From assembly GCA_947632405.1 (NCBI GenBank), contig CANRPE010000004.1:1-49554 (forward strand): a stretch of DNA of 49,554 bases, in the 5' to 3' direction. Shown here one piece after another: positions 3,311 through 46,257 of the stretch. The stretch comes from an uncultured Bacilli bacterium (GTDB lineage: Bacteria > Bacillota_I > Bacilli_A > RF39 > UBA660). Under the pieces are notes generated by a model. It searched no databases, was not told the DNA's origin, and saw nothing but the letters and a program-made list of their open reading frames with translations. Each line of letters opens with the position of its first letter. The stretch's first letter is position 1. The translations under genes were made by a program, and so were the position numbers.

Positions 3311-3360
3311 ATTTTCACCTATTTCTAGTATGATAAAAATTCTAAAAAGTATGCTATAAT

Positions 3361-4584: not shown

Positions 4585-4730
4585 GTATAATCTATAAATA
4601 ATATTTTTCAGCTAAAATATTGAAATATAATTTAAATTAAGATATGATATATAGAAATTAATTTATTTAAGTAATTGTAATTTTTTTATTAGTTATTTCA
4701 TTTATTATAAGTAATAGAAAGGAATTAAAA

Positions 4731-5597
4731 ATGATTAAAATATATACTGATAGTTGTAGTGATATCCCAATTACAAATTTGCCAAAAGATTTAGAAATAC
4801 TTCCACTTCATTATTATTTTGAAGGTGAAAATATTGAATATGGTGAAAAATATCAATTAAATATGCGAGATTTTTTTGAAAAAATAGAGCAGGGTAAAAT
4901 TCCACATACTTCTTCTGTTAATCCTGAATTTGCTATTAATAGATTTTTAGATGATATTTTAAGTGGAAATGATATTATTTGTATTTGTGCATCATCTAGT
5001 TTAAGTAGTACATATCAAAATGTATCATTAGCGGCTAAGCAATTAAAACAAGAATATCCATCAAGTAATATTACTGTTATTGATTCTTTGACTGGTTCTT
5101 TAGCAGAAGGATTATTAGTACTAAAAGCAAATTCATTGAAACAAGAGAAAAAAAGTTATCAAGAAATTATTGATTATATTGAAAATTATAAAAAGTATTA
5201 TCAAATAAATTTTTTTGTTAATGATTTAACTTATTTACAACGAGGAGGTAGAATTTCTAAAACAGCATGTGCTATTGGAACAACTTTAGGTATTAGACCA
5301 TTAATTCATGTAAATTATGAAGGTCAAGCAGAACAAGTTCTAAATAGTAGAGGAGTAAAAAAATGTGATCATATACTAATTCAAAAATTAATTGATGAAG
5401 TAGATTTAAATGAAAGTATAGGTATAGTTCATTCTGATGATTTAGTTTCTGCACAAAGATTACTTTCACAAATTGAAAAATTAGATTTGTCTTGTCCAAT
5501 AGTTTTAGGAGAAATCTCTCCTACAATTGCTACTCATATTGGTCCAAATGCCTATGGTCTTACATATAAAGTAAAATCTATAAAAAAGAATTTATAA
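4731..5597 (+). CDS. DegV family fatty-acid-binding protein
   Basis: N-terminus IKIYTDSCSDIP and overall DegV pattern; 288 aa. Confidence 0.9.
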   Translation: MIKIYTDSCSDIPITNLPKDLEILPLHYYFEGENIEYGEKYQLNMRDFFEKIEQGKIPHTSSVNPEFAINRFLDDILSGNDIICICASSSLSSTYQNVSLAAKQLKQEYPSSNITVIDSLTGSLAEGLLVLKANSLKQEKKSYQEIIDYIENYKKYYQINFFVNDLTYLQRGGRISKTACAIGTTLGIRPLIHVNYEGQAEQVLNSRGVKKCDHILIQKLIDEVDLNESIGIVHSDDLVSAQRLLSQIEKLDLSCPIVLGEISPTIATHIGPNAYGLTYKVKSIKKNL

Positions 5598-5609
5598 ATT
5601 CTTTTTTTT
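5582..5609 (+). terminator. AT-rich hairpin plus T-tract after degV-family gene
   Basis: aaaaaagaattt / aaattctttttt palindrome overlapping the stop codon. Confidence 0.4.
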
Positions 5610-5640
5610 ATGGTATATTATGTATAATAGGAGGAAGATT

Positions 5641-6510
5641 ATGGGAAATATTAAGGGTAAAAAATATCAAAATTTATATACATTTATGCTATTAACAATT
5701 GGTTGTATTATTGGGGCTTATGCTCTTGAGACTTTGCTAATACCAAATACTATTTTAGATGGTGGTATTACAGGAATATCAATAATTATTTCAAAAGTAT
5801 CTAGTATTCCTCTTAGTATATTAGTATTAGTCTTGAACATTCCATTTATTTATGTTGGATATAAAAATATGGGAAAAGGATTTTTAATTAGAGCAGTTTA
5901 TTCAATGATATTATTTTCTTTATCTTTGACTTACTTTGGTTACTTTGAACAAATAACTAATACTATTTTATTAGCAACTATATATGGAGGAGCTTTATTA
6001 GGATTAGGGGTTGGTCTTGTTATTCATGCTGGTGGTTGTGTTGATGGAACTGAATCAGTTGCCTTAGTTATTAGTAAAAAAAGTTCTTTATCAGTTGGTC
6101 AAGTAGTTTTAACTTTTAATTTAGTTATCTTTTTTGTAGCAGGATTTATTTTTGGAATTGATCGAGCTTTGTATTCATTACTTACTTATTTTATTACATA
6201 TAAGGTAATAGATTTTGTTTCAGAAGGATTCCAACAAGCTAAAGCAGCGATGATTATAACTGAAAAAGGAACAGATATGGCTACAGAAATATATAAAAAA
6301 TTAGGACGAACAGTAACTAAGATTAAAGGTAAAGGTTTAATTACGGGTGAAAAGGAAGTATTATACTGTGTCTTAACTAGAATAGAAGTATATGAATTAA
6401 AACGAGTTTGTCAAGAAATGGATCAAAGTAGTTTTATTACTATTTTAGAAGTATCTGAAATAATCGGAGATCATATTAAATCAAATCGAAGAAAAAAATT
6501 AGTAAAATAA
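5641..6510 (+). CDS. YitT family membrane protein (DUF2179 C-terminal domain)
   Basis: Motif LDGGITGISII, multiple TM helices, and a soluble C-terminal domain. Start chosen at the ATG preceded by AGGAGG (track start is 5620). Confidence 0.85.
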   Translation: MGNIKGKKYQNLYTFMLLTIGCIIGAYALETLLIPNTILDGGITGISIIISKVSSIPLSILVLVLNIPFIYVGYKNMGKGFLIRAVYSMILFSLSLTYFGYFEQITNTILLATIYGGALLGLGVGLVIHAGGCVDGTESVALVISKKSSLSVGQVVLTFNLVIFFVAGFIFGIDRALYSLLTYFITYKVIDFVSEGFQQAKAAMIITEKGTDMATEIYKKLGRTVTKIKGKGLITGEKEVLYCVLTRIEVYELKRVCQEMDQSSFITILEVSEIIGDHIKSNRRKKLVK

Positions 6511-6533
6511 AAAAACAAATAATTTGTTTTTTT
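6511..6533. terminator. bidirectional hairpin between convergent yitT-family and hydrolase genes
   Basis: aaaaacaaa-taa-tttgttttt. Confidence 0.4.
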
Positions 6534-7293
6534 ATTCTTTGATAAAGCTTTCAATAATTTGATTAGTTAAAGTTGGATATGCTAGATATGAATAATGAGT
6601 TACTTTTGGATAGATAATCAAGTTACTATTTTTAATTTTTTTATTAATATAATATCCATCCTTTAATGGTGTATCTTTATCTTTTTCACCCCATAATAAT
6701 AGTGTTGGAACATTTATTTCTTTATAATAATATTTTAAATCTTCAGAAATTATATTTTTAAATGTTTGATACATATTTTGATCTAAAGCTTTATAATCAG
6801 TAGATGCGAATTTTCTGAATAATCTTTTTAAATATATATTTCTTTTTCTTTTGGGAACAAAAATTTTTAATTTTTTTAGAAATTTATAAATAGTTTGTTT
6901 AAGTAATTGCATAATTTTTTTTCGTCTTTTAATTCCAGCAACATCAATCATTATAATTTTTTTAATTAAATCTTTATAATATCCAGCAAGTAAGGTTGCT
7001 ATTCTACCTCCAAAAGAATGGCAAATAATAATTGGATTTTTAATTTGTTCTTGTGCCATAAAATCTCTTACTATATTAGTATAATCATAAATAGTTAAAT
7101 CTTTTTCTGGAAATATACTTTTTCCAAATCCAGGATAATCTAAAATATAAACAGTATATTTTAATTTAAAATAATCAATCATCATATTAAAGGTTTTTCT
7201 AGTATCTCCCCAACCAGGTAAAATTAAAATTATTGAATCACTATTTCCATATTTCTCATAATATAAGGCATAGTTGTCTTTATTAAAATACAT
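6532..7293 (-). CDS. alpha/beta hydrolase
   Basis: Nucleophile elbow HSFGG, LPGWGD oxyanion region, C-terminal His. 253 aa. Confidence 0.8.
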   Translation of the reverse strand: MYFNKDNYALYYEKYGNSDSIILILPGWGDTRKTFNMMIDYFKLKYTVYILDYPGFGKSIFPEKDLTIYDYTNIVRDFMAQEQIKNPIIICHSFGGRIATLLAGYYKDLIKKIIMIDVAGIKRRKKIMQLLKQTIYKFLKKLKIFVPKRKRNIYLKRLFRKFASTDYKALDQNMYQTFKNIISEDLKYYYKEINVPTLLLWGEKDKDTPLKDGYYINKKIKNSNLIIYPKVTHYSYLAYPTLTNQIIESFIKE

Positions 7294-11385: not shown

Positions 11386-13719
11386 ATGAAAAGTTTATCA
11401 AAAGAAGAATTATTGACGTTAAATCAATATTTTAATGCCTTAAATTATTTATCTGTAGCACAGTTATATTTGTTAGATAATCCATTATTAAGAACAAAGT
11501 TAAGTATTAATGATATTAAACCGAATGTTGTTGGTCATTGGGGTACTGCTCCAGGACAAAATTTTATTTATTTACATTTAAATAGGATGATTAAAAAATA
11601 TAATTTAGATATGATTTATATTTCTGGTCCTGGTCATGGTGGTCAAGCAATGGTTGCTAATAACTATTTAGAAGGAGTTTATAGTAAATTTTATCCTAAT
11701 ATAACTGAAGATTTAGAGGGATTAAAAAAATTATGTAAGCAATTTTCTTTTCCTGGAGGTATTTCTTCCCATGTTGCCCCTGAAACTCCTGGTTCAATTC
11801 ATGAAGGTGGAGAATTAGGCTACAGTCTTTCTCATGCAACAGGTGCGGTTTTAGATAATCCAAATTTGATTGCCGCTTGTGTTGTAGGTGATGGGGAAGC
11901 AGAAACAGGACCGCTTGCTACAAGTTGGAATTTTAATAAATTTTTAAATCCAAAGACTGATGGAATTGTTTTGCCAATACTTCATCGTAACGGTTACAAA
12001 ATTGCTAATCCTACTGTTTTTGGAAGAATGTCAAAATTTGAAATTGAACAGTTTTTTTCTGGATTAGGATTTAAACCCTATTTTGTAAGTGGCGATAATC
12101 CTTTGAAAATGCATAATGAAATGGCTAAAACAATGGAAAAAGTTATTAAAAATATTAAATATTTAAAAGATGAAATTACTACAAAATGGCCTATTATTAT
12201 TTTAACAACTCCTAAAGGGTGGACAGGACCTAAACAGTTTGCAGAAAAGCAAATTGAAGGTAGTTTTAGATCTCACCAAGTTCCAGTTGCTATTTCAAAT
12301 GAAAATTTAGATGGTTTAGTTGCCTTAGAAAAATGGTTAAAAAGTTATCATCCAGAAGAATTATTTGATGAAAATGGACGATTAATTAAAAAATTAAGAG
12401 ACTTAAATCCACCATTATCAAAATGCATGGGTGCTAGTAAATATGCAAATGGAGGTTTATTATTAAAAGAATTAAATACTCCAAATTGGGAAGATTATGC
12501 TTTAAATATTAGTACTCCAGGTTCTAAAAATGCTCAAGATACTATGGAACTTGGAAATTATATAAGAGACTTATTTAAGTTAAATAAAAAAGAAAAAAAT
12601 TTCAGAATATTTGGTCCTGATGAGGCTTTATCAAATAGATTTAATCATATTTTTGAAGCAGAATCTAGAACTTGGAATCAAAAGATTTTAAAAAACGATG
12701 AATTTTTATCAAACACGGGTCGTATTATGGATTCATATTTATCTGAGCATTTTTGCGAAGGAATGCTTGAGGGATATTTATTAACTGGTAGATATGGTTT
12801 TATTCACAGTTATGAAGCTTTTGTTCGCATTATTGATTCTATGGCTAGTCAACATGCAAAATGGTTAAAGGTTACTAAGCAAATCCCTTGGCGTGAAGAA
12901 ATTGCCTCTTTAAATTATTTGTTAGTATCTCATGTTTTTCAACAAGATCATAATGGTTATACTCATCAAGATCCTGGTTTTTTAAATCATTTAGTTACTA
13001 AAAAAGCAGATATTGTCAGAATGTATTTACCACCAGATACAAATTGTTTACTATCATGTTTTGATCATTGTATAAAAACAAAAAACCATATAAATGTAAT
13101 TGTCGCTAGTAAACATCCAAGACCACAGTGGTTAACAAAAGAGCAAGCAAAAATTCATTGTCAAAAAGGAATAGGAATATGGGATTTTGCAAGTGATAAA
13201 GAAGAACCAGATTTGGTATTTGCTTGTTGCGGAGAAACGCCTACTTTAGAAGTTTTAGCAGCCGTTGATATTTTAAAAACTTCAATCAAAGATATTCATT
13301 TACGTGTAGTTAATGTAGTTGATTTAATGAGACTTCAAACTAAAGAAGAACATCCTCATGGAATGAGTGATGAAGACTATAATAAGATATTTACTCTTGA
13401 TAAGCCTATTATTTTTAATTTTCACGGTTATCCATCATTAATTCATCAATTAACTTATAAACGTGCTAATAGAAATTTACATGTACATGGTTATAAAGAA
13501 GAAGGAACTATAACAACAGCATTTGATATTCGAGTTCAAAATGAAATTGATCGCTTTCATTTAGTTATTTCAGCTTTAAAAGAAATTCCAAGATATAAAA
13601 CAAATTCTAAAGTTTTAGCTGATTGGTGTTATGATATGTTAAAAAAACATTCAAGTTATATAAAAGAATTTGGTGAAGATATGCCATATATTAAAAATTG
13701 GGTATGGAAAAATCATTAA
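11386..13719 (+). CDS. xfp: xylulose-5-phosphate/fructose-6-phosphate phosphoketolase
   Basis: 777 aa with GHWGTAPGQNFIY, the EGGELGYSLSHA ThDP-binding signature, and collinear phosphoketolase pattern throughout. Confidence 0.95.
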   Translation: MKSLSKEELLTLNQYFNALNYLSVAQLYLLDNPLLRTKLSINDIKPNVVGHWGTAPGQNFIYLHLNRMIKKYNLDMIYISGPGHGGQAMVANNYLEGVYSKFYPNITEDLEGLKKLCKQFSFPGGISSHVAPETPGSIHEGGELGYSLSHATGAVLDNPNLIAACVVGDGEAETGPLATSWNFNKFLNPKTDGIVLPILHRNGYKIANPTVFGRMSKFEIEQFFSGLGFKPYFVSGDNPLKMHNEMAKTMEKVIKNIKYLKDEITTKWPIIILTTPKGWTGPKQFAEKQIEGSFRSHQVPVAISNENLDGLVALEKWLKSYHPEELFDENGRLIKKLRDLNPPLSKCMGASKYANGGLLLKELNTPNWEDYALNISTPGSKNAQDTMELGNYIRDLFKLNKKEKNFRIFGPDEALSNRFNHIFEAESRTWNQKILKNDEFLSNTGRIMDSYLSEHFCEGMLEGYLLTGRYGFIHSYEAFVRIIDSMASQHAKWLKVTKQIPWREEIASLNYLLVSHVFQQDHNGYTHQDPGFLNHLVTKKADIVRMYLPPDTNCLLSCFDHCIKTKNHINVIVASKHPRPQWLTKEQAKIHCQKGIGIWDFASDKEEPDLVFACCGETPTLEVLAAVDILKTSIKDIHLRVVNVVDLMRLQTKEEHPHGMSDEDYNKIFTLDKPIIFNFHGYPSLIHQLTYKRANRNLHVHGYKEEGTITTAFDIRVQNEIDRFHLVISALKEIPRYKTNSKVLADWCYDMLKKHSSYIKEFGEDMPYIKNWVWKNH

Positions 13720-14623: not shown

Positions 14624-17600
14624 ATGAAAAAAATTACGGATTTTATAGTAAAAGGAAGATATTTTTTCTTAGTATTATTTATAATATTATCTGGAATATG
14701 TTTATTTTTATCGACTAAAGTTACTATTAATGAAGATATTATGAAATACTTACCAAAATCATCTGAAACTAAGATAGGAAAAGATCTTATGGATGATGAA
14801 TTTAGAAAACAAGATACTTCAATACTTAATGTAATGTTTAAAAACTTATCTAATTCTGATAAACAAAAAATTCTAGAGAAATTAAAAGATATAAAAGGAG
14901 TAAGTTCAGTTTCTTATGAAAATACGGCTGAATATAATAAAAAAAATTATACACTATATATTTTGAATGTAGATGATTATGATTCTTCTAAAACAGCCAC
15001 TAATGTTTATAACTATGTAAATAATAATTTTAAAACAGCAGGCATGAGTGGTTCCATTTATGATGAAAATAAACCAATTTTGCAATTATGGATTGTTATT
15101 ATAGCAGTTATTTTTGCTATGATAATTTTAATTATTTTAAGTGATTCTTATCTTGAACCATTTCTATATTTAATTTCAATTGGAATTGCTATTTTTATTA
15201 ATAAAGGTACTAATATTATGTTTGATAGTGTTTCATCTATTACTAATTCAATTGTAGCCATTTTACAATTAGCTTTATCTATGGATTATTCAATTATGCT
15301 ATCAAATCGTTATAAACAAGAAAAAGAGGCTAATTCTAATAAAGTTGCAGCAATGAAAGAAGCTTTATACCAATCATTTAAGTCAATCTCAAGTAGTTCT
15401 GTTACTACTATTGTAGGTTTAATTGCCCTTGTATTTATGAGTTTTACAATTGGAAAGGACTTAGGTTTTGTTCTAGCTAAAGGAGTTTTACTTAGTTTAG
15501 CTAGTATATTCTTTTGCTTGCCTGCCTTACTTTTAATCTTTGACAATTTAATCGCAAAAACAAAGAAAAAATCACCTAATTTTAATTTAACTAAATTAGG
15601 CAATATAATTTATAAAACTAGATATTTTCAAACAGTTTTAATTATTATATTATTTATAGCAGCTTATTTATTAAAGGGTAATATAAATATTTTATATACT
15701 AGTTCACAACAAGATAAAGTTGGAGCAATATTTCCAGCAACTAATCAGATAGCTATTGTATACAATAATAAATATGAAAAACTAATGAAAAGCTATTGTC
15801 AAGATTTTGAAAAAGATAAAAAAATTGACCAAGTATTATGTTACTCTAATACAATAAATGAAAAATTAGCTTATGACAAGTTAAATCAAAAATTTAAAGA
15901 TTTAGGTCAAAATGTAGAAATTGAAGATTACTTAATTAAAATTATTTATTATAATTATTATAATAAAAATAAAAGTAATAAAATGACCTTAGATGAATTT
16001 ATTTCATTTATTAAATCAGATATAATGACAAATAATAATTTTAGTAATTCACTTAGTAATGATATACAAACTAATTTAGATTTACTTAAAAATTTTACAT
16101 CTTCTGATTTAATTAATCAAAAACGTTCAATAAAAGATATAGCGAGTATTTTAGGAATGAATGAAATAGATGCTACAGATATTTTAATTTATTATAATAG
16201 TAAGAATTCAAATTTAAGCATGACTATTAAAGATTTTGTCCATTTTATGTTAACAGATGTAGCTAATAATAAAAAATATGCGAGTAGTTTAGATAAGGAA
16301 ACTATTTCTAAATTAAAACAATTAGATAATTTTTCAAATATTAATATAATAAATCAAAAAATGAATTCTAATGAATTATCTGAACTTTTCGGTATAGAAA
16401 AAAATTTAGTTGATAAATTATTTCTTTTTTATGAAACAACACAAGAAAGTAGTACGAAGTTAACTTTAAATGAATTTACTAAATTTGCTTTAGCTATGTC
16501 AAATAAGAGTGATTATAAAGATATGTTTGATGAAACTACTCTTAAATCATTAACTATTTTAAATACATTAAGTAATAAAGATTATATAAATAAAGATTTA
16601 GATAAAAATACTATGAAGAATGTTTTAAATAATTTTGGTTTAGCATTAAATGATGATTATTTAACTCTTATATACCTTTATTACACAGGTTATTATTCTT
16701 CTACTAAATTAACTTTAAGTGATTTTGCTAATTTAACTTTAAATATGGCTAATAATCCATCTCTAGTTAAGTATGTTAGTCTCGATTCTGAAACAATAAA
16801 TACTTTAACATTAATTAAAAATTTAAATGAAAAATATAATACACCTTTATCAAAAGAACAATTATATTTAATTTTTGGAATTAGTTCTGAATTCCAAGAA
16901 CAATTAAATCAAGAAATTACAGAATCAATGACTCCAAAAGAATTTATAGATAAATTATTATCATCAAAAATTCTAGCTAATAATGACCAAACAATTACGT
17001 CTTTAAAATTAGCACAGTATTATTTAAATACAATGGATAAAAAATATGATATCAATGAACTTGCTACTGTTGTAGCAAAAGATAAAGCAACTAATAAAGC
17101 AACTATAAGTTTTATCTATGGTTTTTATGATAATCAAAATGGAAATATTAAAAAAATATCTCTTAAAAACTTAATAAACTTTTTATATAGTAATAAATCT
17201 AATCAATTAATTGCTCAAACTTTAGAAAATTATCAAAATATGTTTACTTTAACTTATAACGTAGTTAATAATGTTGATACAGTTTATAGTTATTTTGAAT
17301 TAGCAAATATTATTAATAAAGATTCAAATCAAATTAATAAGATTTTTAATGTTTATGATTTTTATCATACTACTATAACACTTACACCATTTGAATTAGT
17401 TAATTTAATATTAAATAATATTGATAATTCTCTTTTACAAAATCAATTATCTTCTGATAATATTAATGAATTAAATTTAGTTAAAGAAGTTATGAACTCT
17501 ACAATAAATGAAACTAAATATTCTCCTCAATCACTAAGTATGTTATTAGGTATAAATAAAAATACATTAGAGTTATTATTTAGTTTATATAATTCAAAAT

Positions 17601-28374: not shown

Positions 28375-29817
28375 ATGAATGATGAATTCAATGAGTTAGA
28401 TAATCTTGATTATCTTGAAGATGAAGTTATTTATGACGAAGATTATGATAATTATTATGATGACGATTTTGATACTGAAATTGATGAATATGACGATGAT
28501 TATACTATTTCTGATAGTGAAGATTATAAATATGAAGATAATCTTGAGCTAGATGAAAATTATCAATACAATGAAATAGAATCTGAAAATGATGATAAGT
28601 TAGAAAAAACAATTAATCTTCGTAATAAAATGATAAGAATATTTTTGATTATTTTATTACTTATTATTATCATTTTATTGAGTTCTGTATTTATAAAGTC
28701 ATTTATTTCTAAAAATAAAAATGAAAAAGATGAAGTTACTGTAACTAAAAAAGAAAAAGAAAATTATGATGAAATATTTAGCTTAATGAAAAATGCTTGT
28801 ATTAATTATTATGATCAAGAAAAAATTGATAATGATGAAATATTAACTTTAAAAAAGATGAAAGAATTATCTCTTATTAAAACAGTAGATGAAAATTATG
28901 ATGACGAAAATTCTATTGCTTATATTAAGAAAAAAGATGATAATTATGAATTAACTATAAATGTTAAATATAATAATATTAAAAAAACAAAAACATATAT
29001 ACTAGGTCATTATTCATATTGTACTAATACTTATTTATGTGAGAAAGATGAAACATTAGAAAATGAAACATACTTATATGAATATTCTAAAGAAGGAAAA
29101 GTTACCTTATCTAATTGGTCTAGCTGGAGTAATTATGTAAATACTTCATGTACTACTAAAAATATTTCTTGTGATACTGATGATATGAATTGTTTAACTG
29201 AAATTAAAGTTATTCAAAAAGAAGAAAAAAGTGGTACAAAAAATAAATATTATATTAATTATCGCTCTGCTTTTCAAACTAATCAAAAAGAAGTTAGAAA
29301 AGTATGTAGTAATTTTGATTATATTAAAATTAATGGAGTTTACTATCGTACAGAAAAAAATAGTAATTATAAAATGTTAGGAGCAATTAAAAAAACTACG
29401 ATGGCTAATTATTATAATTTCCGTTATGATGGTAGATATAGTTATCAAAATCCACCAAATGATACAATAGCGACTCGTTTTGTCTTTGTTGGACCAGATT
29501 ATAGTAATTGTAAAGATACATGTGATGGTAAAATTAAATATTATTATGATGCCTATACATTTACAAAAAGTCTTACTAAAGTTTCTAATCCAGAGTTAGA
29601 TTGTAATAATTCTACTACTATTGTAATTCCAAATTATTCTATTACTAAGCAAAAAATAACTGTAAATTTTGAAGAACCACAATATCAAACTGTGTGTTAT
29701 AAAACAACAAGAACAAGAACTAAACAAAATGACAGTGATACTGTTTGGAGTAAAGAAGATGATTCAAAATTACTTGATAATGGTTATACATATACAGGAA
29801 ATAAAAAGTTAAGTTAG
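28375..29817 (+). CDS. hypothetical single-pass membrane protein: Asp/Tyr-rich cytoplasmic tail, Cys-rich ectodomain
   Basis: 480 aa. About 85 acidic N-terminal residues (DEDYDNYYDDDFDTEIDEYDDDY), a TM helix IRIFLIILLLIIIILLSSVFI, then a Cys-rich domain with SNWSSWS. Promoter at 28318-28346 and SD GGGGG. Confidence 0.6.
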   Translation: MNDEFNELDNLDYLEDEVIYDEDYDNYYDDDFDTEIDEYDDDYTISDSEDYKYEDNLELDENYQYNEIESENDDKLEKTINLRNKMIRIFLIILLLIIIILLSSVFIKSFISKNKNEKDEVTVTKKEKENYDEIFSLMKNACINYYDQEKIDNDEILTLKKMKELSLIKTVDENYDDENSIAYIKKKDDNYELTINVKYNNIKKTKTYILGHYSYCTNTYLCEKDETLENETYLYEYSKEGKVTLSNWSSWSNYVNTSCTTKNISCDTDDMNCLTEIKVIQKEEKSGTKNKYYINYRSAFQTNQKEVRKVCSNFDYIKINGVYYRTEKNSNYKMLGAIKKTTMANYYNFRYDGRYSYQNPPNDTIATRFVFVGPDYSNCKDTCDGKIKYYYDAYTFTKSLTKVSNPELDCNNSTTIVIPNYSITKQKITVNFEEPQYQTVCYKTTRTRTKQNDSDTVWSKEDDSKLLDNGYTYTGNKKLS

Positions 29818-29828
29818 GAGTGATTTAG

Positions 29829-31688
29829 ATGAAAGATAATAAATTTGTAATAAAAGTTATATTTTATGAGATTGAGGTTGATGATAAAACTGTTCAACAA
29901 GCGGCACTTATTTGTGATGATGGAATATCAATAGTTTCAAAAGAAGAAGGATATAAAGTATTAAATGAAATGATACATGAAACTGTAAATGCAAATGGTA
30001 AAAGTCTTGATTTTGATGATATAGAGAAATTAGATTTATTTGAAGTTTTGCATGAAGAAGATTTTATTAATAAGTATCCTGATTTATATACTAAAATACA
30101 AGCTCATATGCATAATGAAAATAATAATTCTCAAACTGAGGAACAATCAGAATTTAAAGATAGTCAAGATATTGAAGAAAATGATGAAGAAGACTATGAT
30201 GACTATGATGATTATGATGATTTTTCAGTTCTAGCAGAAATGATTAAAGATAAACTTAAAGGCCTTAAAGTTAAGAATGTTGTTTTTGGAGCAGCAATTA
30301 TATTTTTAGCAGTTACTGCTGGAAAATGTGCCTTTAAACTTGCAGATAAAAGCGAATCTAAAAATAGTAAAACAGTAAAGACTGTTAAAGAAGAAACTAC
30401 AACTGATATTGAAAATAGCAAGGAAAACGATGCTACTACAGAAAAAACATATCAAAATATGGAAGAACTTTTACGTAGTGCAAATATCAATTCAACAAAA
30501 GCAGCTGCTATTGAAAAAGTATGGCTATATTTATGCAATTATAATCAATCTATTTCAGAAAGATATTTAAGTGATTCAACTAGACTTGCACATACATGGG
30601 ATGAAATTATGATTCAATTTTTAACATATAATGATTTAAGTCAAGATGATATTAATGCTATTTTTGGTAATTATAATTTAAATGTTGATGAGTTAAAAGC
30701 ATCATATCAAGCTGGTTTTAACCAAGATGTATTAGAATATTGTGTATTAACTGATCCTAGTAATAAATCAAGTTTATTTGTTTCAAAAGAAAGTCAAGAC
30801 TTTTATAACAAATATGAAGATATGATTATTCGTTTTAATAGATATGAAGATATTTCAAAGAAAGAAGAAGTTGCTAATCAATTTTATAATGAAATTAGAG
30901 ATGATTTTGAATTAAACGTAGCAGGAGCTGAAATTCCAAATTATAAATTATCTGTTTTAGCAATGATTAAAGCTTTTAATACTATGACAAAAGATTTAGA
31001 TTTAGAAGCTAAATTAACTAAAGCTGAGAAAAAATACTTTAATAATTTAAGTGATTTCTCACAAGTTGAAGGTAAAATATCAAATCTAGCGACTCTTTTA
31101 TATTCACATAATCTTGCTCAACAAGCATTAAATGAAGTTAATAGTGAAATTTCCTATGAAGATATCCGTAACTTAGCAATTAATGAGTTGATGACTAATA
31201 ATTTATATAGTGTAGAAGAAAGTCAACGAGATATTAGTAATTCATCTTTTTATAAAAATAATACTAATTTAAAAAGTAGCAAAAAAGAAAAATCAGAAGA
31301 AACAGAAACAACTGTATCTCCAAATACTGAATCTAATAGTAATCAACAAAAATATAATGAAAGTACAACTAATAGTTCAAATGAAAGTAAAGATGATAAT
31401 TATCAAGATGAAGAAAAATCAGCAAAAATTCCAGATTGGATGTTAGAAGAAGAAGAACAAGATACTAGTTATATAAATAATCAAGAAACTACTGAAAATG
31501 ATACTGAAATAGATGTAAATGAAGATACGGAATATTATGATGAAGAAATCATTCCAGTTGAGCCTGACACACCTGATTATAGTTATAATAATAGAATGTT
31601 ATATAATGAAGCTGTAGCTAATTTATTAGTTGAAAATATGGAAAAAGTAGGTATTGCAGCTTACCAAGAAAATCATGCTAAAAAATAA
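29829..31688 (+). CDS. hypothetical single-pass membrane protein with Asp/Tyr-rich tract
   Basis: 619 aa. Soluble N-domain, acidic tract EENDEEDYDDYDDYDDF, TM helix VVFGAAIIFLAVTAG, a helical ectodomain and an acidic S/T/N/E-rich tail. Lies 11 nt after the previous gene. Confidence 0.6.
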   Translation: MKDNKFVIKVIFYEIEVDDKTVQQAALICDDGISIVSKEEGYKVLNEMIHETVNANGKSLDFDDIEKLDLFEVLHEEDFINKYPDLYTKIQAHMHNENNNSQTEEQSEFKDSQDIEENDEEDYDDYDDYDDFSVLAEMIKDKLKGLKVKNVVFGAAIIFLAVTAGKCAFKLADKSESKNSKTVKTVKEETTTDIENSKENDATTEKTYQNMEELLRSANINSTKAAAIEKVWLYLCNYNQSISERYLSDSTRLAHTWDEIMIQFLTYNDLSQDDINAIFGNYNLNVDELKASYQAGFNQDVLEYCVLTDPSNKSSLFVSKESQDFYNKYEDMIIRFNRYEDISKKEEVANQFYNEIRDDFELNVAGAEIPNYKLSVLAMIKAFNTMTKDLDLEAKLTKAEKKYFNNLSDFSQVEGKISNLATLLYSHNLAQQALNEVNSEISYEDIRNLAINELMTNNLYSVEESQRDISNSSFYKNNTNLKSSKKEKSEETETTVSPNTESNSNQQKYNESTTNSSNESKDDNYQDEEKSAKIPDWMLEEEEQDTSYINNQETTENDTEIDVNEDTEYYDEEIIPVEPDTPDYSYNNRMLYNEAVANLLVENMEKVGIAAYQENHAKK

Positions 31689-33077: not shown

Positions 33078-33149
33078 ATAAAATAATATTGAAGATACAT
33101 AAATAATTTGTTATACTAAAATATATATAATAATTTGGGAGACGTTATT

Positions 33150-34562
33150 ATGGGAAAACAAAATAAAACAATTAGAAATCGAAGAAAAATAAAAGTTGAA
33201 AATTACGATAATCTTAATAATGATACTAGTGGTTTAAAAAATAAAATTACAAAGGCATTTGCTCGTGAGGCTGAATTTACAATTATATCTATTTTTATAG
33301 TTACTATTATTATGATTTCTGGAGCATATGCTGTTTTTTCAACGGTACAAAAACAAGAAACCTATAATACATTAACTGTAGGTACCTTAAAAATTGATTT
33401 TGATGCAACTTCTACTGATTTAGGAAATGTAATTAATTTAAATGGAACATATCCAATGAGTGATATTGATGGTCAAAAGGAAACAAATCCTTCTTATAGT
33501 TTTAAAATTACAAATACTGGTAATTTAGATGCTTTTTATAAAGTGAAAATTATTGATGATGATGAAATGATAAAAGAAGATGACTGTGCAGATAATTTAC
33601 TTCAAAAGGATAAAATAAAGATTAGTATTAACAATAGTACTCCATTTCTTTTAAATACGGTAGAATCAAATGATTATATTATTGATTCTGATATTTTAAA
33701 GGCAAATAAGAGTAAAGTTTTTTCAATTAAAGTTTGGATAGATGAAGATGCAGGTAATGAAGTTTTAAGAAGACATTATCATGGAAAGATTGTTGTTGAA
33801 GGTGAAAATGCACAATCCAATAAAAATATTGTTGTCGCATATAAATATGATGAAGAAAATGCTGCAACAAAGTGTATTTCTGGAACAGAAACAACTTGTC
33901 AAGAAACAGATTGCTATAAAGATCGAAATAAAGATATTTGTCCTAAAGGAACAATTATTAAATATAAAGTAAATGATCAAGAAACTATTCCTTTCCATGT
34001 AGTGTATGATAATGGTTTAACTTTAACTATGCAAAGTCAAAAAAATATTGTTTATAATACTCAGTGGTATTACACAAAAGAAGATAGTATAAAAGCTCCA
34101 AATACAATTTTAGATAAATTAGAATCAGTAACACAAAATTGGGATAATGTAAATTCAAAAACATATGAACTTGGTACAACTAGTTTAAGTAATAAAGGAG
34201 AATTTACAGGATGCACACAAGAATTAGTATGCAATAGTAATACTTATACTTTAACTGAAAGAACAGCAAAGGCAAGAATTTTAACTTTTCAAGAGGCAGT
34301 TGATTTAGGTTGTACTAGAGAAGCACAATCATGTCCTATTTGGATGTATAATTATTTATTTAATTCAACTAATTTTTCAGGAACTGAAAATGATATTTAT
34401 AAAGAAAATGAAGCTCAAACAAATGCAGGTTATTGGCTTATTAATTCGAATTCATCTAATCTTGATAGTGCTTGGGATATATATACAAACGGTAATTTAA
34501 CAGATAATTCTATTGATAATATAGAATATGGTGCACGAGCTGTTATTGAAATTAATAAATAA
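33150..34562 (+). CDS. secreted/anchored protein with TasA/camelysin-like (SipW-type signal) N-terminal domain and Cys-rich C-terminal domain
   Basis: The TM helix ends in SGAYAVFS and is followed by TLTVGTLKIDFD and FKITNTGNLDAFYK. This parallels TasA/CalY motifs (AAF.., GTLDL, N.GSL). ATG 33150 has the SD GGGAG (track start is TTG 33135). Confidence 0.55.
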   Translation: MGKQNKTIRNRRKIKVENYDNLNNDTSGLKNKITKAFAREAEFTIISIFIVTIIMISGAYAVFSTVQKQETYNTLTVGTLKIDFDATSTDLGNVINLNGTYPMSDIDGQKETNPSYSFKITNTGNLDAFYKVKIIDDDEMIKEDDCADNLLQKDKIKISINNSTPFLLNTVESNDYIIDSDILKANKSKVFSIKVWIDEDAGNEVLRRHYHGKIVVEGENAQSNKNIVVAYKYDEENAATKCISGTETTCQETDCYKDRNKDICPKGTIIKYKVNDQETIPFHVVYDNGLTLTMQSQKNIVYNTQWYYTKEDSIKAPNTILDKLESVTQNWDNVNSKTYELGTTSLSNKGEFTGCTQELVCNSNTYTLTERTAKARILTFQEAVDLGCTREAQSCPIWMYNYLFNSTNFSGTENDIYKENEAQTNAGYWLINSNSSNLDSAWDIYTNGNLTDNSIDNIEYGARAVIEINK

Positions 34563-36887: not shown

Positions 36888-38054
36888 ATGAGGTTTAAAC
36901 GAATATTTTTAATGGTCTTAGATTCAGTAGGAGTAGGGGAAGCAAAAGATGCTTCAAACTATGGAGATATTGGCTGCAATACATTAGGACATATCAAAGA
37001 TTCTACAAGTTTATTTATTCCTAATTTAAAGAAAATAGGTTTTTTAGATACAGTAAACATGAATGAAAATGATAATGTAGATGCTTATTATACTATAGCT
37101 GAACCTAATAATGCAGGAAAAGATACATTAAATGGTCATTATGAAATGATGGGAATTACAAATAATATTGAATTTAAAACATTTAATAGTGGTTTTCCAA
37201 CTGAATTATTGAATCAAATAGAACAAGTTACAGGAAGAAGAATTATCGGTAATAAATGTTGTAATAACGATGAAATTATTAAAGAACTTGGAGAAAGACA
37301 ATTGAATTATGGCTCTTTAATTATTTATACTTCTGCAGATTCTGATTTACAAGTTGCTGCTCATGAAGATGCAATTCCAGTTTCAATGTTATATCAGTAT
37401 TGTGAAAAAATACGAGCAATTACATTACGTGAAGATTGGCGAGTAGGTAGAGTCATTGCAAGACCATTTATAGGAAGTAATGGTCATTATCGTTTTTCTA
37501 ATAGTGGTAGAAAAGATTATGCTGTAAAACCACCTAAAAAAACTATACTTGATAGTTTATCTGAAAATAATTATAATGTTATCGCTATTGGTAAAATTAA
37601 TGATATTTTTGATGGAGTTGGTATTAATAAAAGTATAAAAGCTACAAATAATATGGAAACAATTAATAAATTAACTGATATTATGGATAAGAATTTTACA
37701 GGATTATGTATGGTTAATTTAGCTGATTTTGATAGTTTATATGGCCATACTAGAAATGTTGAAGGTTATGCCAAAGCTTTAGAAGAATTAGACGTTGAGA
37801 TTCCAATGATTATTAATAAATTAGAATTAGATGATTTATTAATAATTACAGCAGATCATGGCAATGATCCAACTTTTGAAGGTTGTGATCACACAAGAGA
37901 AAATGTTCCGGTAATTTTATATAGTAGAAGTTTTGTAGAACCTAAAATTTTGCCTAAATTAAATACTTTAGCTGATATTGGAGCAACTATTGCTCAAAAC
38001 TTCGAAATAAGTTTACCAGAAATAGGTAATAGTATCTTAAATAAATTAAAATAA
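36888..38054 (+). CDS. deoB: phosphopentomutase
   Basis: RIFLMVLDSVGVGE, ADFDSLYGH and ITADHGNDPT motifs. Confidence 0.95.
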   Translation: MRFKRIFLMVLDSVGVGEAKDASNYGDIGCNTLGHIKDSTSLFIPNLKKIGFLDTVNMNENDNVDAYYTIAEPNNAGKDTLNGHYEMMGITNNIEFKTFNSGFPTELLNQIEQVTGRRIIGNKCCNNDEIIKELGERQLNYGSLIIYTSADSDLQVAAHEDAIPVSMLYQYCEKIRAITLREDWRVGRVIARPFIGSNGHYRFSNSGRKDYAVKPPKKTILDSLSENNYNVIAIGKINDIFDGVGINKSIKATNNMETINKLTDIMDKNFTGLCMVNLADFDSLYGHTRNVEGYAKALEELDVEIPMIINKLELDDLLIITADHGNDPTFEGCDHTRENVPVILYSRSFVEPKILPKLNTLADIGATIAQNFEISLPEIGNSILNKLK

Positions 38055-38083
38055 AAAGAGTAGGAGAGAGACCTATTCTTTTT
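38055..38083. terminator. bidirectional hairpin between deoB and DUF1540-like ORF
   Basis: aaagagtagg-agagaga-cctattcttt (one G-U pair), with T-runs on both strands. Confidence 0.5.
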
Positions 38084-38252
38084 CTTCATCAATACTATCA
38101 AAACTATCACATACAGTTTCTTCAGTACAACTACAATCATCATTATCACAGACACAACTTACTTTAATTTCATCTAATTCACATTCTTGTTTGTCAGTAT
38201 TTTGATGTTTGCAACTATTTACTTCACATTTAATTTTACTTTTTTTATCCAT
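38073..38252 (-). CDS. DUF1540-like small cysteine-rich protein (59 aa, not in ORF track)
   Basis: Minus-strand ATG 38252 is preceded by AGGAGG. Translation is MDKKSKIKCEVNSCKHQNTDKQECELDEIKVSCVCDNDDCSCTEETVCDSFDSIDEEKE. The KCxVxxCxH...C pattern is typical of DUF1540 proteins of spore formers. Confidence 0.5.
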   Translation of the reverse strand: MDKKSKIKCEVNSCKHQNTDKQECELDEIKVSCVCDNDDCSCTEETVCDSFDSIDEEKE

Positions 38253-38612: not shown

Positions 38613-38640
38613 ACTTCCTATAATTGATATTATGTTAACT
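38613..38640 (+). other. dif: dif chromosome-dimer resolution site (XerC/XerD target)
   Basis: ACTTCCTATAATTGATATTATGTTAACT matches the Bacillus subtilis dif core as I recall it (ACTTCCTAGAATATATATTATGTAAACT) at 24 of 28 positions. It matches the E. coli XerD arm TTATGTTAAAT at 10 of 11. It lies at the coding-strand switch. Confidence 0.8.
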
Positions 38641-38651
38641 TCATTAAATTA

Positions 38652-39761
38652 CTATTTAATAATTAGTTTTTTAGGAAGTTCATGTAATGGTTGTATATGA
38701 GTAATTATTCTATTAATTGTATCTAACTTATCTTTTGTTTCAAGATAAAAATCATTAAATTCATCACTTTTATGTTGCGTTAAATATGCTATTTTTATTT
38801 GTTTTTTAAATAAATTAAGTGCTAATTCTTCTTCTGATAAATATTGAATATTCCCATTAAATAGATTATTTATAAAATCTTCTTCTAATTCATCATTAGA
38901 GAGAATTATATTAGTTATTTTGGAAGATACTGAAAGTGATTTTTCACTTCCCTTACACATTAAATAATTATTTTGACTTATAGAACTATCAATAGCCTTT
39001 AAATAAAGTGATTCACTACATGTAGGACAATAGATATAATATTTATCTTGTTCATTTAATATTGTCATTTGATGATTTACATAGTCTGTAGTTAAATCAA
39101 CTTCTTTTTCATTAGTTGTATGATACTTATTTACATATAGATTATGAGCTTCATTCCCTACTCTATTTTCTAAGTCAGTTAATAATGAACTCATATGTCT
39201 GCATACAGATCTACCTGTTGCTACTCTACAACCAAATAGCTCGTCTAATTCACATTTTTTGATAATATCAGCTGCTTTACCTGCTGCTATATAAGTATCA
39301 TAACCATGTTTCTTAGAATAAGATAGTAAGCCATTATTTAACATATATTGATAAGCTAAAGCAACTTCAAAACTATCAGTAATATCAAGACTTTTTAAAA
39401 AACTTGAAAAATCATCTAAATATTTTTCATATACATTTATACATTGATGATACTCATCACTTTGTCTTAAAGAATTCATTAAACTATTTGCGACTGAATT
39501 ATCACCTTTATTCTTTTCATATTTAATAAATGATGAAACAAGTGAAAAAGTAAAAAACAAAAGATGACCACCACTAAGCATTAATAATTTATTAGTAATA
39601 TCATCAATAGGTAAAGTTGAAGAAAGATAAAATTCTACTAAGCTTATTTCAGTTAATAAAGTTGAAAATTCAGTAAAGATTCTAACATTTTTACTTTTTA
39701 TTTGTTCTTTTATAAAACGTTGTTTAAATAATTTTGCTAAATTAAAATAATCTATTTCCAT
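38652..39761 (-). CDS. hypothetical protein with possible transglutaminase/papain-like Cys-His core
   Basis: 369 aa, SD AGGGGA. GRSVCRHMSSLLTDLENRVG resembles the G-x-C-R-D-F-A transglutaminase-core motif. VNHQMTILNEQDKYYIYCPT resembles the H-A-W-x-E...F-D-P-T segment. Confidence 0.6.
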   Translation of the reverse strand: MEIDYFNLAKLFKQRFIKEQIKSKNVRIFTEFSTLLTEISLVEFYLSSTLPIDDITNKLLMLSGGHLLFFTFSLVSSFIKYEKNKGDNSVANSLMNSLRQSDEYHQCINVYEKYLDDFSSFLKSLDITDSFEVALAYQYMLNNGLLSYSKKHGYDTYIAAGKAADIIKKCELDELFGCRVATGRSVCRHMSSLLTDLENRVGNEAHNLYVNKYHTTNEKEVDLTTDYVNHQMTILNEQDKYYIYCPTCSESLYLKAIDSSISQNNYLMCKGSEKSLSVSSKITNIILSNDELEEDFINNLFNGNIQYLSEEELALNLFKKQIKIAYLTQHKSDEFNDFYLETKDKLDTINRIITHIQPLHELPKKLIIK

Positions 39762-39839: not shown

Positions 39840-40607
39840 TTAAACTTTTCTTGATTGAATTTCTGCTATCTTTTCTAAAACTTCTTTAGCATTGTTTTCA
39901 TTAATTTCAGTATACCCTAATTCTTTTAAAGCTTGAATTTTTGCTGTATTAAGTTCTTGAGTTCTACTTAATTTTTCTTCGTTCTTATGTGCAATATCTT
40001 CTACAAATCGTTTATGAGCATCAGTTATTTTTGTTCTAGATGATCCACCATTACTATATAAAGTCATTGCACTAAACATAATACTTTCAAAGATAAATTG
40101 TTGATCTTTATTATATATAAATTCCATAGGATCTGTAAATCCTAATGATTTAGACATATATGCTAAAATATATTCTAATTCCTTATTTGTTTCCATTGAT
40201 TGTAAAAACTGATATAAATAACAAAAAGTAGTATAGGTATTTTTAGTTTTATCATCTGATAATTTTTCTTTTAACAAATTAATAATATCAGATAATATTT
40301 CCTGTTCCTTCTTATTAAATCCTTTTAACTCAGTAAATATTTCTCTATCAGCAGTGTTTTTTACTCCTTCATTTAAACGAGCTTCAACATCCATAATATA
40401 TTCGCCTGTTACTTCTATTTTATTAATTTCTTCTTCAGTAGCAACACTTAATAAGCTTAATAATTTTACTGATTTTTCTTTTGGCCATTCTGCTAATGAA
40501 TCTAATGCTAGATAATTATATAACATTTGACGAGATACACCTAGATATTTTGCTAATCTGACTTTACTAATTCCTAATTCTACTAAAACTGTATTTAAAT
40601 TTTTCAT
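39840..40607 (-). CDS. helix-turn-helix (XRE-like) DNA-binding protein with unknown C-terminal domain
   Basis: N-terminus LGISKVRLAKYLGVSRQMLYNYL. 255 aa. Has its own promoter (40631-40658) and its own terminator (39807-39837). Confidence 0.75.
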   Translation of the reverse strand: MKNLNTVLVELGISKVRLAKYLGVSRQMLYNYLALDSLAEWPKEKSVKLLSLLSVATEEEINKIEVTGEYIMDVEARLNEGVKNTADREIFTELKGFNKKEQEILSDIINLLKEKLSDDKTKNTYTTFCYLYQFLQSMETNKELEYILAYMSKSLGFTDPMEFIYNKDQQFIFESIMFSAMTLYSNGGSSRTKITDAHKRFVEDIAHKNEEKLSRTQELNTAKIQALKELGYTEINENNAKEVLEKIAEIQSRKV

Positions 40608-44881: not shown

Positions 44882-46252
44882 TCAATTTTTTCCAGTAGTT
44901 ATTCTTCGTTTTATTTTTCTTTTTTTATTATAATTTTTTTTATTTTGGAAATCATTATAATTAGCTAATTCCAAAGCCTTATCGTAAAGTTGTTGTTGAT
45001 CACTATATTCCTCGATATAAGTATTTATTAATGTATCTGTTAAAATTTGTTGATTTAACTGATAACTATCTGAATTTTCTTTTTGTTGGTTTTGCCTAAC
45101 AAATATTAAACATTTTGCCAAATCTTCGATTGTTATTTCTCTTTCTAGATATGGTTCTAAATCTTGATAATAAAATAAACATTTTTCTTTACCATCTATA
45201 AAATTTTTTAAACAATTATTTTCCATTAATTGACAAATATAATCTGCTTTCATTCCAAATAAACTATAATAATTTGCAATCGAATAAATAAGCTTACTTG
45301 CCTTTAAATCTTGAATATTATTAAGTTCATTTATAGCTTGTTCTGGATTATTATTTTTATCAAAAAAAGGTGTTAATGTACTAATTAGATTATCTTTATC
45401 AATTATCTTAAAAAAAGCTTTTGTTCGAGCAAAATAACGATAATTTTGGTAAGTACTATCTTCTTTTTCTTCTTTAGACTTAGCATAAAAATCAAAATAT
45501 AAGATAGAATTAACATTATATTTTTCATCATTTACATAAACAAAATTTCTATAATATTGTTTTTTAGAATTATTTTGTTTTAAGATATCAATAGCTGAAT
45601 TCATCCCTAATTTTTTAACTACAAAATCAAAAATAACAGTAGATTTTATTATATTATTTTTTTCTTTTTCTAAGTCATTAGTAATATTTTGAGAATTTAA
45701 ATTATCTAATTGGTCTTTTTCACTTATATTTCTTTTAATTTCATCATATAAGTAAAGTAATTGTTCTAATGGGGATAATTCAATTACTTTTTCAAATATA
45801 GTATTAATTAATTGAATCATTTTAATAAATTCTTGATAAGTAATTATTTGATTTTGGATTTTTATTTTTAAAAAGGTACTAAAATCTTCTTTTAAAAATA
45901 AATCTAACTTATCATAATCATTTGGAGTAACAACTAAAATTGGTTCTTGAGATTTTAAACTAGGATTATTTTTTAAAAATTTAATTGTATTTTCGATATT
46001 ATTTTCATTACTACAAATTTTAATAGTTTGAGCATTTTTAATTTGAAATTTTTCTAAATCTTTTGAATCATAAAAATAGCCTTTAGAACGAAAAGCATTT
46101 CGAACTAATTCATATACTTTTTCTTCTTGATATGTTTTTTCTAATGTTTCTGTAGGATCTATATATAAAATAAGATTATAATCATCAATTAATTGATATT
46201 TATCAGTACTAGTTTCATTTTTTTCAGATTTTAAAAAAATTTCTAAATTCAT
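44882..46252 (-). CDS. hypothetical protein, gene 3 of unknown trio (possible Cys-less transglutaminase-like scaffold, basic tail)
   Basis: 456 aa. Its SD AAGGAG is embedded in the 3' end of the upstream gene. Region aa 155-260 is LSPLEQLLYLYDEIK ... STVIFDFVVKKLGMNSAIDIL ... YYRNFVYVNDEKYNVNSILYFDF. Confidence 0.65.
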   Translation of the reverse strand: MNLEIFLKSEKNETSTDKYQLIDDYNLILYIDPTETLEKTYQEEKVYELVRNAFRSKGYFYDSKDLEKFQIKNAQTIKICSNENNIENTIKFLKNNPSLKSQEPILVVTPNDYDKLDLFLKEDFSTFLKIKIQNQIITYQEFIKMIQLINTIFEKVIELSPLEQLLYLYDEIKRNISEKDQLDNLNSQNITNDLEKEKNNIIKSTVIFDFVVKKLGMNSAIDILKQNNSKKQYYRNFVYVNDEKYNVNSILYFDFYAKSKEEKEDSTYQNYRYFARTKAFFKIIDKDNLISTLTPFFDKNNNPEQAINELNNIQDLKASKLIYSIANYYSLFGMKADYICQLMENNCLKNFIDGKEKCLFYYQDLEPYLEREITIEDLAKCLIFVRQNQQKENSDSYQLNQQILTDTLINTYIEEYSDQQQLYDKALELANYNDFQNKKNYNKKRKIKRRITTGKN

Positions 46253-46257
46253 ATGTT

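Follow-up and report, generated by a model that had tools for sequence, protein, structure and literature searches.

The locus and its gene content

The subject of this work is a putative dif site, a target of the tyrosine recombinases XerC and XerD, in the DNA of an uncultured Bacilli bacterium. The DNA analysed, referred to below as the window, is one complete contig of 49,554 bp (CANRPE010000004.1 of assembly GCA_947632405.1), and our statements on skew, uniqueness and motif counts cover that contig. Its mean GC content is 23.5% (77% A+T). Near the point where the genes of the window converge, the plus-strand genes xerD and deoB are followed by a minus-strand open reading frame (ORF) for a small DUF1540 protein, then by the 28-mer ACTTCCTATAATTGATATTATGTTAACT on the plus strand, and then by two minus-strand genes, the orphan orf369 and orf255, which encodes a helix-turn-helix (HTH) protein (Table 1). 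This 28-mer is, in our opinion, very probably the functional chromosomal dif of a very AT-rich (~23% GC), spore-forming gut Bacilli bacterium.

The larger part of the window, to the left of the 28-mer, holds gerA-type germination genes, a tRNA methyltransferase gene, rimM, trmD, genes for a phosphoketolase and for a 1362-aa MMPL-family protein, spoIIGA, sigE, a thymidine kinase gene, ppdK, a P-type ATPase gene, yebC, rarA, xerD and deoB. To the right of orf255 come mnmA, spoIIM, an ORF of 101 aa, yetF and spoIVB, in this order, and farther on xseB. The window is chromosomal DNA, as seen from trmD, rimM, sigE, spoIIGA, spoIVB, mnmA, xseB and ppdK. PHROG, Pfam and family searches detected no plasmid or phage genes in the window, and no integrase, Rep or Zot gene was found near the 28-mer.

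Table 1. Features at and around the putative dif site, in window coordinates.
Feature	Position	Strand	Remarks
Putative dif core	38613..38640	+	unique in window; 24/28 to B. subtilis dif; 21/28 columns invariant in 38 related loci
XerC-type arm, ACTTCCTATAA	38613-38623	+	part of dif core
Central hexamer, TTGATA	38624-38629	+	part of dif core
XerD arm, TTATGTTAACT	38630-38640	+	part of dif core
Short conserved extension, XerD-arm side	38641..38643	+	clade consensus TCT(A)T; TCA in window
xerD, tyrosine recombinase, 299 aa	35926..36825	+	TIGR02225; Phage_integrase and SAM-like N-terminal domain; ends 1,788 nt before dif
deoB (phosphopentomutase), last plus-strand gene	36888..38054	+	NF003766, 487 bits
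Hairpin at convergent junction	38053..38083		12-bp stem, -11.9 kcal/mol, z = -3.0; skew maximum 38070 lies inside
DUF1540 ORF, Cys-rich, 58 aa, first minus-strand gene	38077..38252	-	PF07561, E = 3.3e-6
orf369, orphan, 369 aa, XerD-arm side of dif	38652..39761	-	no family, no homologue
HTH protein (orf255), 255 aa, first conserved right-flank gene	39840..40607	-	weak HTH_7 match; 55-77% identity in relatives
xseB (exonuclease VII small subunit), 77 aa	49248-49481	-	missed by ORF lister

The 28-mer and its similarity to validated dif sites

The 28-mer occurs in a single copy in the window: with up to three mismatches allowed it remains the sole match, and the next-best 28-mer on either strand differs from it at seven positions. 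It has the 11-6-11 architecture of dif, with imperfectly inverted arms that are complementary to each other at 7 of 11 positions. Compared with the dif site of B. subtilis, 24 of 28 positions are identical (XerC arm 10/11, hexamer 4/6, XerD arm 10/11); compared with that of E. coli, 20 of 28 are, with 10/11 in the XerD arm and 6/11 in the XerC arm. The site is intergenic, being placed between the start of the DUF1540 ORF (38252) and the stop codon of orf369 (38652-38654).

An earlier note on this DNA, made from the letters of the sequence alone, had already pointed to the 28-mer as a dif site, and its description of the site holds in nearly all details. Position and strand were given correctly, and the B. 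subtilis string given there agrees with the one printed verbatim by Kono et al. 2011 (PMC3025954), so that the identity of 24/28 stands. The same applies to the match of the right arm to the E. coli XerD arm at 10 of 11 positions, to the non-coding gap with 12 nt between 38640 and the nearest stop codon, which belongs to a minus-strand ORF, and to the proximity of xerD, 1.8 kb away (a gap of 1,788 nt). Only the placement of the mismatches needs a correction. One does fall in each arm (position 9 in the XerC arm and position 24 in the XerD arm); the central mismatch that had been put just 5' of the hexamer lies inside it under the 11-6-11 partition, where positions 13 and 14 both belong to the hexamer.

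It might be argued that such a sequence is a chance AT-rich near-palindrome devoid of function, given that the genome is 77% A+T and that AT-rich backgrounds are known to complicate dif prediction in clostridia (PMC3025954). This explanation is effectively refuted. At the composition of the window (38% A, 38% T), a match of at least 24/28 to the B. subtilis dif is expected by chance 2.2e-4 times per window, dinucleotide-preserving shuffles of the window gave 0 matches to the 28-mer, and the site is conserved across 41 species amid intergenic DNA that is otherwise unalignable (see below).

In the literature, a dif site is recognized by its resemblance to a validated dif, its presence as one copy, its place between genes and its closeness to a skew shift (PMC1914069, PMC2731167, PMC3025954). 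By these standards the 28-mer qualifies as a canonical XerC/XerD-type dif, its single copy and its nearness to a skew shift being those seen within the 49.5-kb contig.

Two further candidates in the immediate vicinity of the site were discarded. An inverted copy of the XerC arm, ACTTCCTAAAA (38669-38679, minus strand, 10/11), lies 45 nt from dif within the 3' end of orf369 and is probably coincidental; single-arm matches are found in the window at chance frequency, five being observed for 2.45 expected. Accessory sequences resembling those of cer were suggested by blastn similarities of 150-190 nt on the XerC-arm side in related loci; a MAFFT alignment of 38 loci shows none of them to be conserved, and these extensions arise because of the AT-rich composition.

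Strand switch and nucleotide skew

To the left of dif, 29 coding sequences lie on the plus strand and six on the minus strand (the DUF1540 ORF included), while all 11 to its right (xseB included) are on the minus strand; these are the counts that the earlier note had given. That note had also placed dif at the coding-strand switch. The switch is indeed nearby, but does not coincide with the site: the genes converge at 38054/38077, between deoB and the DUF1540 ORF, and dif lies ~0.55 kb to the right of this point. It is for this reason that dif is flanked by two minus-strand genes.

The cumulative GC skew of the window reaches its maximum at 38070, 0.54 kb from dif, with positions 37938-38089 lying within 5 counts of the maximum; a least-squares fit puts the GC-skew change point after base 38071, and the cumulative AT skew peaks at 38157. 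Since gene strand and side of dif are confounded, we measured the top-strand GC skew at third codon positions. It amounts to +0.30 in plus-strand genes on the left, +0.16 in minus-strand genes on the left (positive in 6/6) and -0.26 in minus-strand genes on the right (negative in 10/10). Intergenic DNA behaves likewise, with +0.33 to the left of dif and -0.27 to its right. The sign of the skew in the window thus tracks the side of dif and not the coding strand, as expected from a replication-linked mutational bias, and bears out the polarity of converging replichores that had been read from gene directions. This polarity of strand and skew spans the whole 49.5 kb and extends beyond a single pair of operons.

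In Bacillota, where skew and gene direction follow the leading strand, an excess of G over C that passes from the top strand to the bottom strand, accompanied by converging genes, marks a terminus rather than an origin. Skew and genes both switch in this direction and therefore point to a terminus, and it is likely, in our view, that the two replichores meet within the window.

The hairpin at the convergent junction is probably a bidirectional terminator; a simple terminator scan did not call it.

Conservation of the site in related gut Bacilli

Relatives of the organism were collected as loci encoding DeoB proteins 60-78% identical to that of the window, which yielded 41 species-level loci (L123-L172, L053 and L019) with a site at three or fewer mismatches from the 28-mer. 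They come from gut metagenome-assembled genomes (MAGs) labelled Bacilli, Tenericutes, Mollicutes or Erysipelotrichaceae, as well as from Candidatus Faecimonas and Clostridium sp. CAG:417, these two and the MAGs labelled Tenericutes or Mollicutes being the nearest kin of our organism; Faecimonas is placed by the NCBI taxonomy in Bacilli incertae sedis. In these 41 loci the convergent junction is the same, dif follows downstream of xerD-deoB at a distance of 20-2250 bp, and 0.9-3.3 kb separate xerD from dif. The conserved order is rarA (leftward), xerD and deoB (both rightward), a leftward DUF1540 ORF, dif, and then orf255, mnmA, spoIIM, orf101 and spoIVB, of which the first four are leftward. 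Most relatives have the DUF1540 ORF (44-63% identity) in the gap from deoB to dif, and orf255 is to the right of dif in nearly all of them. Pooled over the 41 loci, 272 ORFs on the left are plus and 66 minus, compared with 15 plus and 234 minus on the right; 39 of 41 loci have a positive raw GC skew to the left, and 32 of 34 a negative one to the right.

When 38 loci were oriented by dif and aligned with MAFFT, 21 columns proved invariant, and all of them lie within the 28-mer. Beyond the 28-mer and its TCT extension this alignment contains no conserved intergenic column, the surrounding DNA being unalignable. The TC(T) follows the 28-mer in nearly all TTGATA-type sites, in either orientation of the site. 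As nothing else in the intergenic DNA is conserved, selection therefore acts on dif itself.

More distant Bacilli (DeoB identity of 55% or less) mostly keep the xerD-deoB pair. In two of them a sequence weakly resembling dif (5 mismatches) is seen at 3-6.5 kb from deoB; in the remaining ones no dif-like match exists within 10 kb. Such a distribution implies that the pairing of xerD and deoB is ancestral and that the terminus came to lie beside it in the clade of our organism. The xerD-deoB-dif arrangement also appears in the circular MAG OZ006981.1 (L160), whose site differs from that of the window at five positions and hence stands outside the 41 loci. Circular MAGs in or near the clade measure 1.3-1.5 Mb.

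The orientation of dif is not fixed in the clade. With xerD-deoB set as plus, dif is plus in 17 loci, the window among them, and minus in 25, with identical flanking genes. A neighbour-joining tree built from the joined DeoB and XerD sequences has only minus sites on its deep branches and requires at least three changes of orientation; judging from this topology, the minus orientation appears to be ancestral. The demonstrable flipping unit is only ~32 bp, because the surrounding DNA cannot be aligned, and no inverted partner site for these flips was identified. Overall, this suggests that the orientation of dif relative to its flanks is not constrained.

Elements between dif and half-dif sites

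The XerD-arm side of dif varies from species to species: it may be nearly empty or occupied by upp and pyrP, by murT and gatD, or by large membrane proteins. In three cases the cargo is an element bounded by dif and a partial copy of it. Locus L170 has an insertion of 5.2 kb that is flanked by the full dif (11855-11882) and by a second site in direct repeat (17065-17092), AAATTATTTCA|TTGATA|TTATGTTAACT, in which the central region and the XerD arm are identical and the XerC arm is degenerate. The genes of this insertion code for a rolling-circle Rep (Rep_OBD, 9.9e-41), a P-loop ATPase similar to Zot (phrog_197, 3.7e-8) and a protein of 440 aa whose N-terminus is hydrophobic and resembles a signal peptide. 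The element of L131 (1868-6818, on the same contig as L063) is related to it and measures 4.9 kb; it encodes an ATPase homologous to that of L170 and a protein of 62 aa that looks like a major coat protein; here the half-site that faces dif consists of the XerC arm and the central region. The same layout recurs over 5.7 kb (1097-6859) of L209, a viral contig from IMG/VR, where the Rep is of the G2P type (1.1e-17) and a Zot domain is also encoded (3.7e-6). Small coat-like proteins are thus encoded in the L131 and L209 elements and Rep in those of L170 and L209, and both attP types are present, one keeping the XerD arm with the central region and the other the XerC arm with the central region.

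By their structure, these three elements bear the signature of Xer-exploiting integrative elements of the inovirus type, and their dif/half-dif boundaries suggest that the dif of the clade is recombined in vivo by Xer enzymes. A 'second site' in L171 was also considered as the boundary of an element; it encloses conserved core genes and is therefore a chance match.

In the window, the slot on the XerD-arm side is taken by orf369, for which a search of 5.8 billion proteins returned only the protein itself and which matches no Pfam, NCBIfam or PHROG family. It has no homologue in the 41 syntenic loci, whose corresponding slot is empty or holds other cargo, and on these grounds we regard orf369 as an accessory insertion. 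Searches with the 28-mer and with single arms revealed no half-dif or second full site bounding orf369 in the window. The expectation of the earlier note that a terminus-proximal zone would collect accessory DNA is well matched by this orphan, which abuts dif, and by the varied cargo in the relatives, dif-bounded inovirus-like elements included.

Keeping these elements in mind, one might suppose that the 28-mer is itself the attachment or junction site of a mobile element, imitating dif but owned by an integrated phage or plasmid instead of serving the host for dimer resolution, and that the strand switch is no more than the usual border of two convergent operons. In line with this view would be the 24 IMG/VR viral contigs on which dif-like sites with these arms occur, the inovirus-like elements at the same position in relatives and the orphan gene abutting the site. 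It is nevertheless very improbable. The window contains no second full or half site (the next-best 28-mer has seven mismatches, and single arms occur at chance frequency), both flanks consist of housekeeping and sporulation genes conserved across 41 species, no integrase, Rep, Zot or phage gene is found nearby, and the polarity extends over the full 49.5 kb.

Sites with the same arms in other genomes

A scan of 185,579 species genomes (596 Gb), in which both 11-nt arms were required to be exact and the hexamer was left free, found such sites in at least 120 genome contigs, one copy per contig except for one duplication across a run of N. Even at the composition of the window, at most ~2 two-arm matches of this kind would be expected by chance in 596 Gb. 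Among the matches listed, the carriers are Bacillus and related genera, gut Bacilli MAGs, Izemoplasmatales, Acholeplasmatales, Omnitrophota and Planctomycetales, and the hexamer seen most often is TTGATA (36/121), which is restricted to gut MAGs of low GC content and is followed there by the conserved TCT.

In two large records the position of the site can be related to the length of the whole. The circular record of Bacillus sp. N5-665 (NZ_CP093325.1, our L225 and L226; 5,519,593 bp) has dnaA at 552-1949 and the same-arm site at ~2.82 Mb, which is 51.1% of the record, at a local skew change; in an Alkalihalobacillus contig of 3.81 Mb the site lies at 49.1%. We note that NZ_CP093325.1 is labelled 'plasmid p1' in a plasmid collection in spite of carrying dnaA and is evidently a chromosome.

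The same two arms, with other central hexamers, were also seen on 24 IMG/VR viral contigs (L201-L224). In many cases no more than ~100 nt separate the site from an end of its contig, as would befit prophages or Xer-exploiting elements that were excised at dif.

The recombinase and its presumed partner

The 299-aa protein encoded upstream of deoB scores 339.8 bits against the XerD equivalog model TIGR02225 and passes its cut-off of 329.6. Against the XerC model it reaches 310.5 bits, below the cut-off of 335.15, and against the XerS model 120.5 bits, for a cut-off of 267. Classical xerC and xerD genes are described as distant from dif, and dif as having 'no apparent specific genetic environment' (PMC1914069, PMC2731167). 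The conserved closeness of xerD and dif is the sole departure of our locus from this textbook picture.

That closeness raises the question of whether the site, as a real Xer target, might be served by the adjacent XerD homologue alone, in a lineage with a reduced genome. The linkage over 0.9-3.3 kb in all 41 relatives, set against the distant genes of classical systems (PMC1914069, PMC2731167), speaks for such a single-recombinase module, as do the lack of a second recombinase gene within 10 kb and the size of only 1.3-1.5 Mb of the circular MAGs in or near the clade. Yet the two arms are clearly different, with 7/11 symmetric positions, and the left arm, which is 10/11 identical to the arm bound by CodV (XerC) in B. 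subtilis, hardly varies within the clade, a fact in favour of a separate binder of the XerC type. Moreover, the protein scores as XerD and not as XerS (120 bits versus 267), and the xerD-deoB pair is ancestral in Bacilli that have dif elsewhere, so that the linkage may have arisen as a side effect of the position taken by the terminus. Taken together, we hold it improbable that one recombinase serves the site. There is a similarly small chance that xerD and dif form a linked terminus unit in which XerD may need no partner on a dif of canonical appearance; the unit would then be the third Xer system with a single recombinase, evolved independently of the others. Were this so, at least three in-place inversions and the repeated capture of inovirus-like elements would portray an unusually active autonomous module.

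Points that weigh against a functional dif at the terminus

Several observations do not fit smoothly with the interpretation of the 28-mer as a functional chromosomal dif at the meeting point of the replichores. The site is 0.54 kb off the skew maximum and not exactly on it. No plus-strand genes exist on the right side of the window, and strand and side are almost fully confounded there. In the pooled relatives, the 15 plus-strand ORFs to the right of dif have a third-position skew of +0.22, positive where a negative value was expected; the minus-strand ORFs to the left have +0.11, as expected. The replication-linked component of the skew is, in consequence of these figures, cleanly shown on the left only. 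The skew curve and the copy count of the 28-mer cover a single contig of 49,554 bp. Neither the window nor the 10 kb around deoB in the related loci contains xerC; in Bacilli this gene (codV) is typically a neighbour of hslVU-codY.

The polar motifs belong to the same side of the balance. The window lacks GAGAAGGG and GGGNAGGG, the guide motifs known for FtsK/SpoIIIE. GAAGAAG has a top-to-bottom strand ratio of 17:4 to the left of dif and 1:6 to the right, which tracks the coding strand; two of the four wrong-strand copies on the left lie within minus-strand genes. Another candidate guide motif, GAGTAGGG, appeared 58 times on the leading and 0 times on the lagging strand in 709 kb pooled from 41 loci. 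It was rejected, as the octamer sits in the conserved SVGVGE codons of deoB and its bias is therefore due to the shared ancestry of one gene.

Proposed role of the site and its significance

In spite of these points, a functional chromosomal dif remains our preferred interpretation, and the proposal of a XerC/XerD-type dif at converging replichores, as formulated in the earlier note, is supported by the 24/28 match, the conserved arms, the synteny of 41 loci, the peaks of GC and AT skew ~0.5 kb away, the opposite signs of third-position and intergenic skew on the two sides, the neighbouring xerD, and the place of the same-arm site opposite dnaA in a complete Bacillus chromosome. By analogy with E. 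coli and B. subtilis, the following sequence of events can be envisaged. An odd number of crossovers after replication would leave the sister chromosomes joined as a dimer. XerD, encoded 1.8 kb away, would then bind the right arm TTATGTTAACT, and a XerC/CodV-type partner, presumably encoded outside the window, would bind the left arm ACTTCCTATAA; exchange of strands by the two across TTGATA would resolve the dimer. The position of dif, ~0.5 kb from the inversion of leading-strand gene orientation and skew, would correspond to the place where the replichores meet, and we infer that this place lies opposite oriC.

The dif of the window is an ordinary and expected chromosome feature and no new kind of element. 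Sites of this type have been predicted in hundreds of genomes from 16 phyla (PMC3025954), and calling them is a routine part of genome annotation. For an uncultured lineage known mostly from fragmented MAGs, the site nonetheless provides a reliable landmark: it marks the probable terminus, orients the replichores on the window and on ~40 related contigs, and flags the adjoining DNA as a likely entry point for Xer-exploiting elements. A modest comparative value may be seen in the conserved xerD-deoB-dif linkage, in the unfixed orientation of dif, and in the inovirus-like elements found at dif in gut bacteria of Gram-positive lineage.

Other features of the window

Two short genes of Table 1 need a comment. 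The DUF1540 ORF, with its 58 aa, falls below the cut-off of 80 aa used for listing ORFs, and a plus-strand ORF at 49252-49497 is discarded as an antisense artefact of xseB. An Rfam scan of the window found no family reaching the threshold. Six large ORFs, of 480, 619, 475, 456, 642 and 327 aa, located at 28375-31688 (+), 33135-34562 (+) and 44882-49181 (-), have no Pfam match at 1e-5 or better; those of 475, 456, 642 and 327 aa have no match in NCBIfam either, while the ORFs of 480 and 619 aa were outside that search. These family-less ORFs are embedded in conserved runs of housekeeping and sporulation genes.

Comparison with known Xer systems

With the dif/XerC/XerD/FtsK system of E. coli the locus shares the architecture of the site, its intergenic location, its (here probable) place at a replichore junction and the XerD arm, 10/11 identical (TTATGTTAACT versus TTATGTTAAAT). 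It differs in the XerC arm, where only 6/11 positions agree, and in that the window contains no GGGNAGGG of the FtsK-orienting polar sequence (KOPS) type.

The linkage of a recombinase gene to its site throughout a clade recalls XerS/difSL of streptococci and lactococci and XerH/difH of epsilon-proteobacteria. Those systems are characterized by one atypical recombinase of ~356 aa and by a 31-bp or divergent site immediately upstream of its gene. The window, in contrast, has a 299-aa XerD equivalog and a canonical 28-mer 1.8 kb downstream of its gene, with deoB in between. A module of the difSL/difH type was considered for the window and rejected on these grounds: an XerS score of 120.5 bits versus 267, a length of 299 aa, and a site that is downstream and canonical.

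The elements seen in relatives find their counterpart in the integrative mobile elements exploiting Xer (IMEX), such as the CTX, VGJ and TLC elements of Vibrio. Like these, the inovirus-like elements of L170, L131 and L209, with their rolling-circle Rep and Zot-like ATPase genes, are placed between dif and a directly repeated half-dif. The hosts, unlike those of IMEX, are gut Bacilli of Gram-positive lineage, and the window itself is without such an element, having instead an orphan gene with no bounding half-site.

The closest system is dif with CodV (XerC) and RipX (XerD) of B. subtilis. The differences are few. The hexamer is TTGATA here and TATATA there; xerD lies 1.8 kb from dif, whereas the xer genes of classical systems are distant from it (PMC1914069); and the genome of the window is far more AT-rich and probably much smaller. 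The likenesses are more extensive, as both sites are 28 bp long, are built as 11-6-11 and agree at 24/28 positions, with 10/11 in each arm. Both organisms are also spore-forming Bacilli that pair xerD (ripX) with deoB (drm) and have their site at a change of skew and gene orientation.

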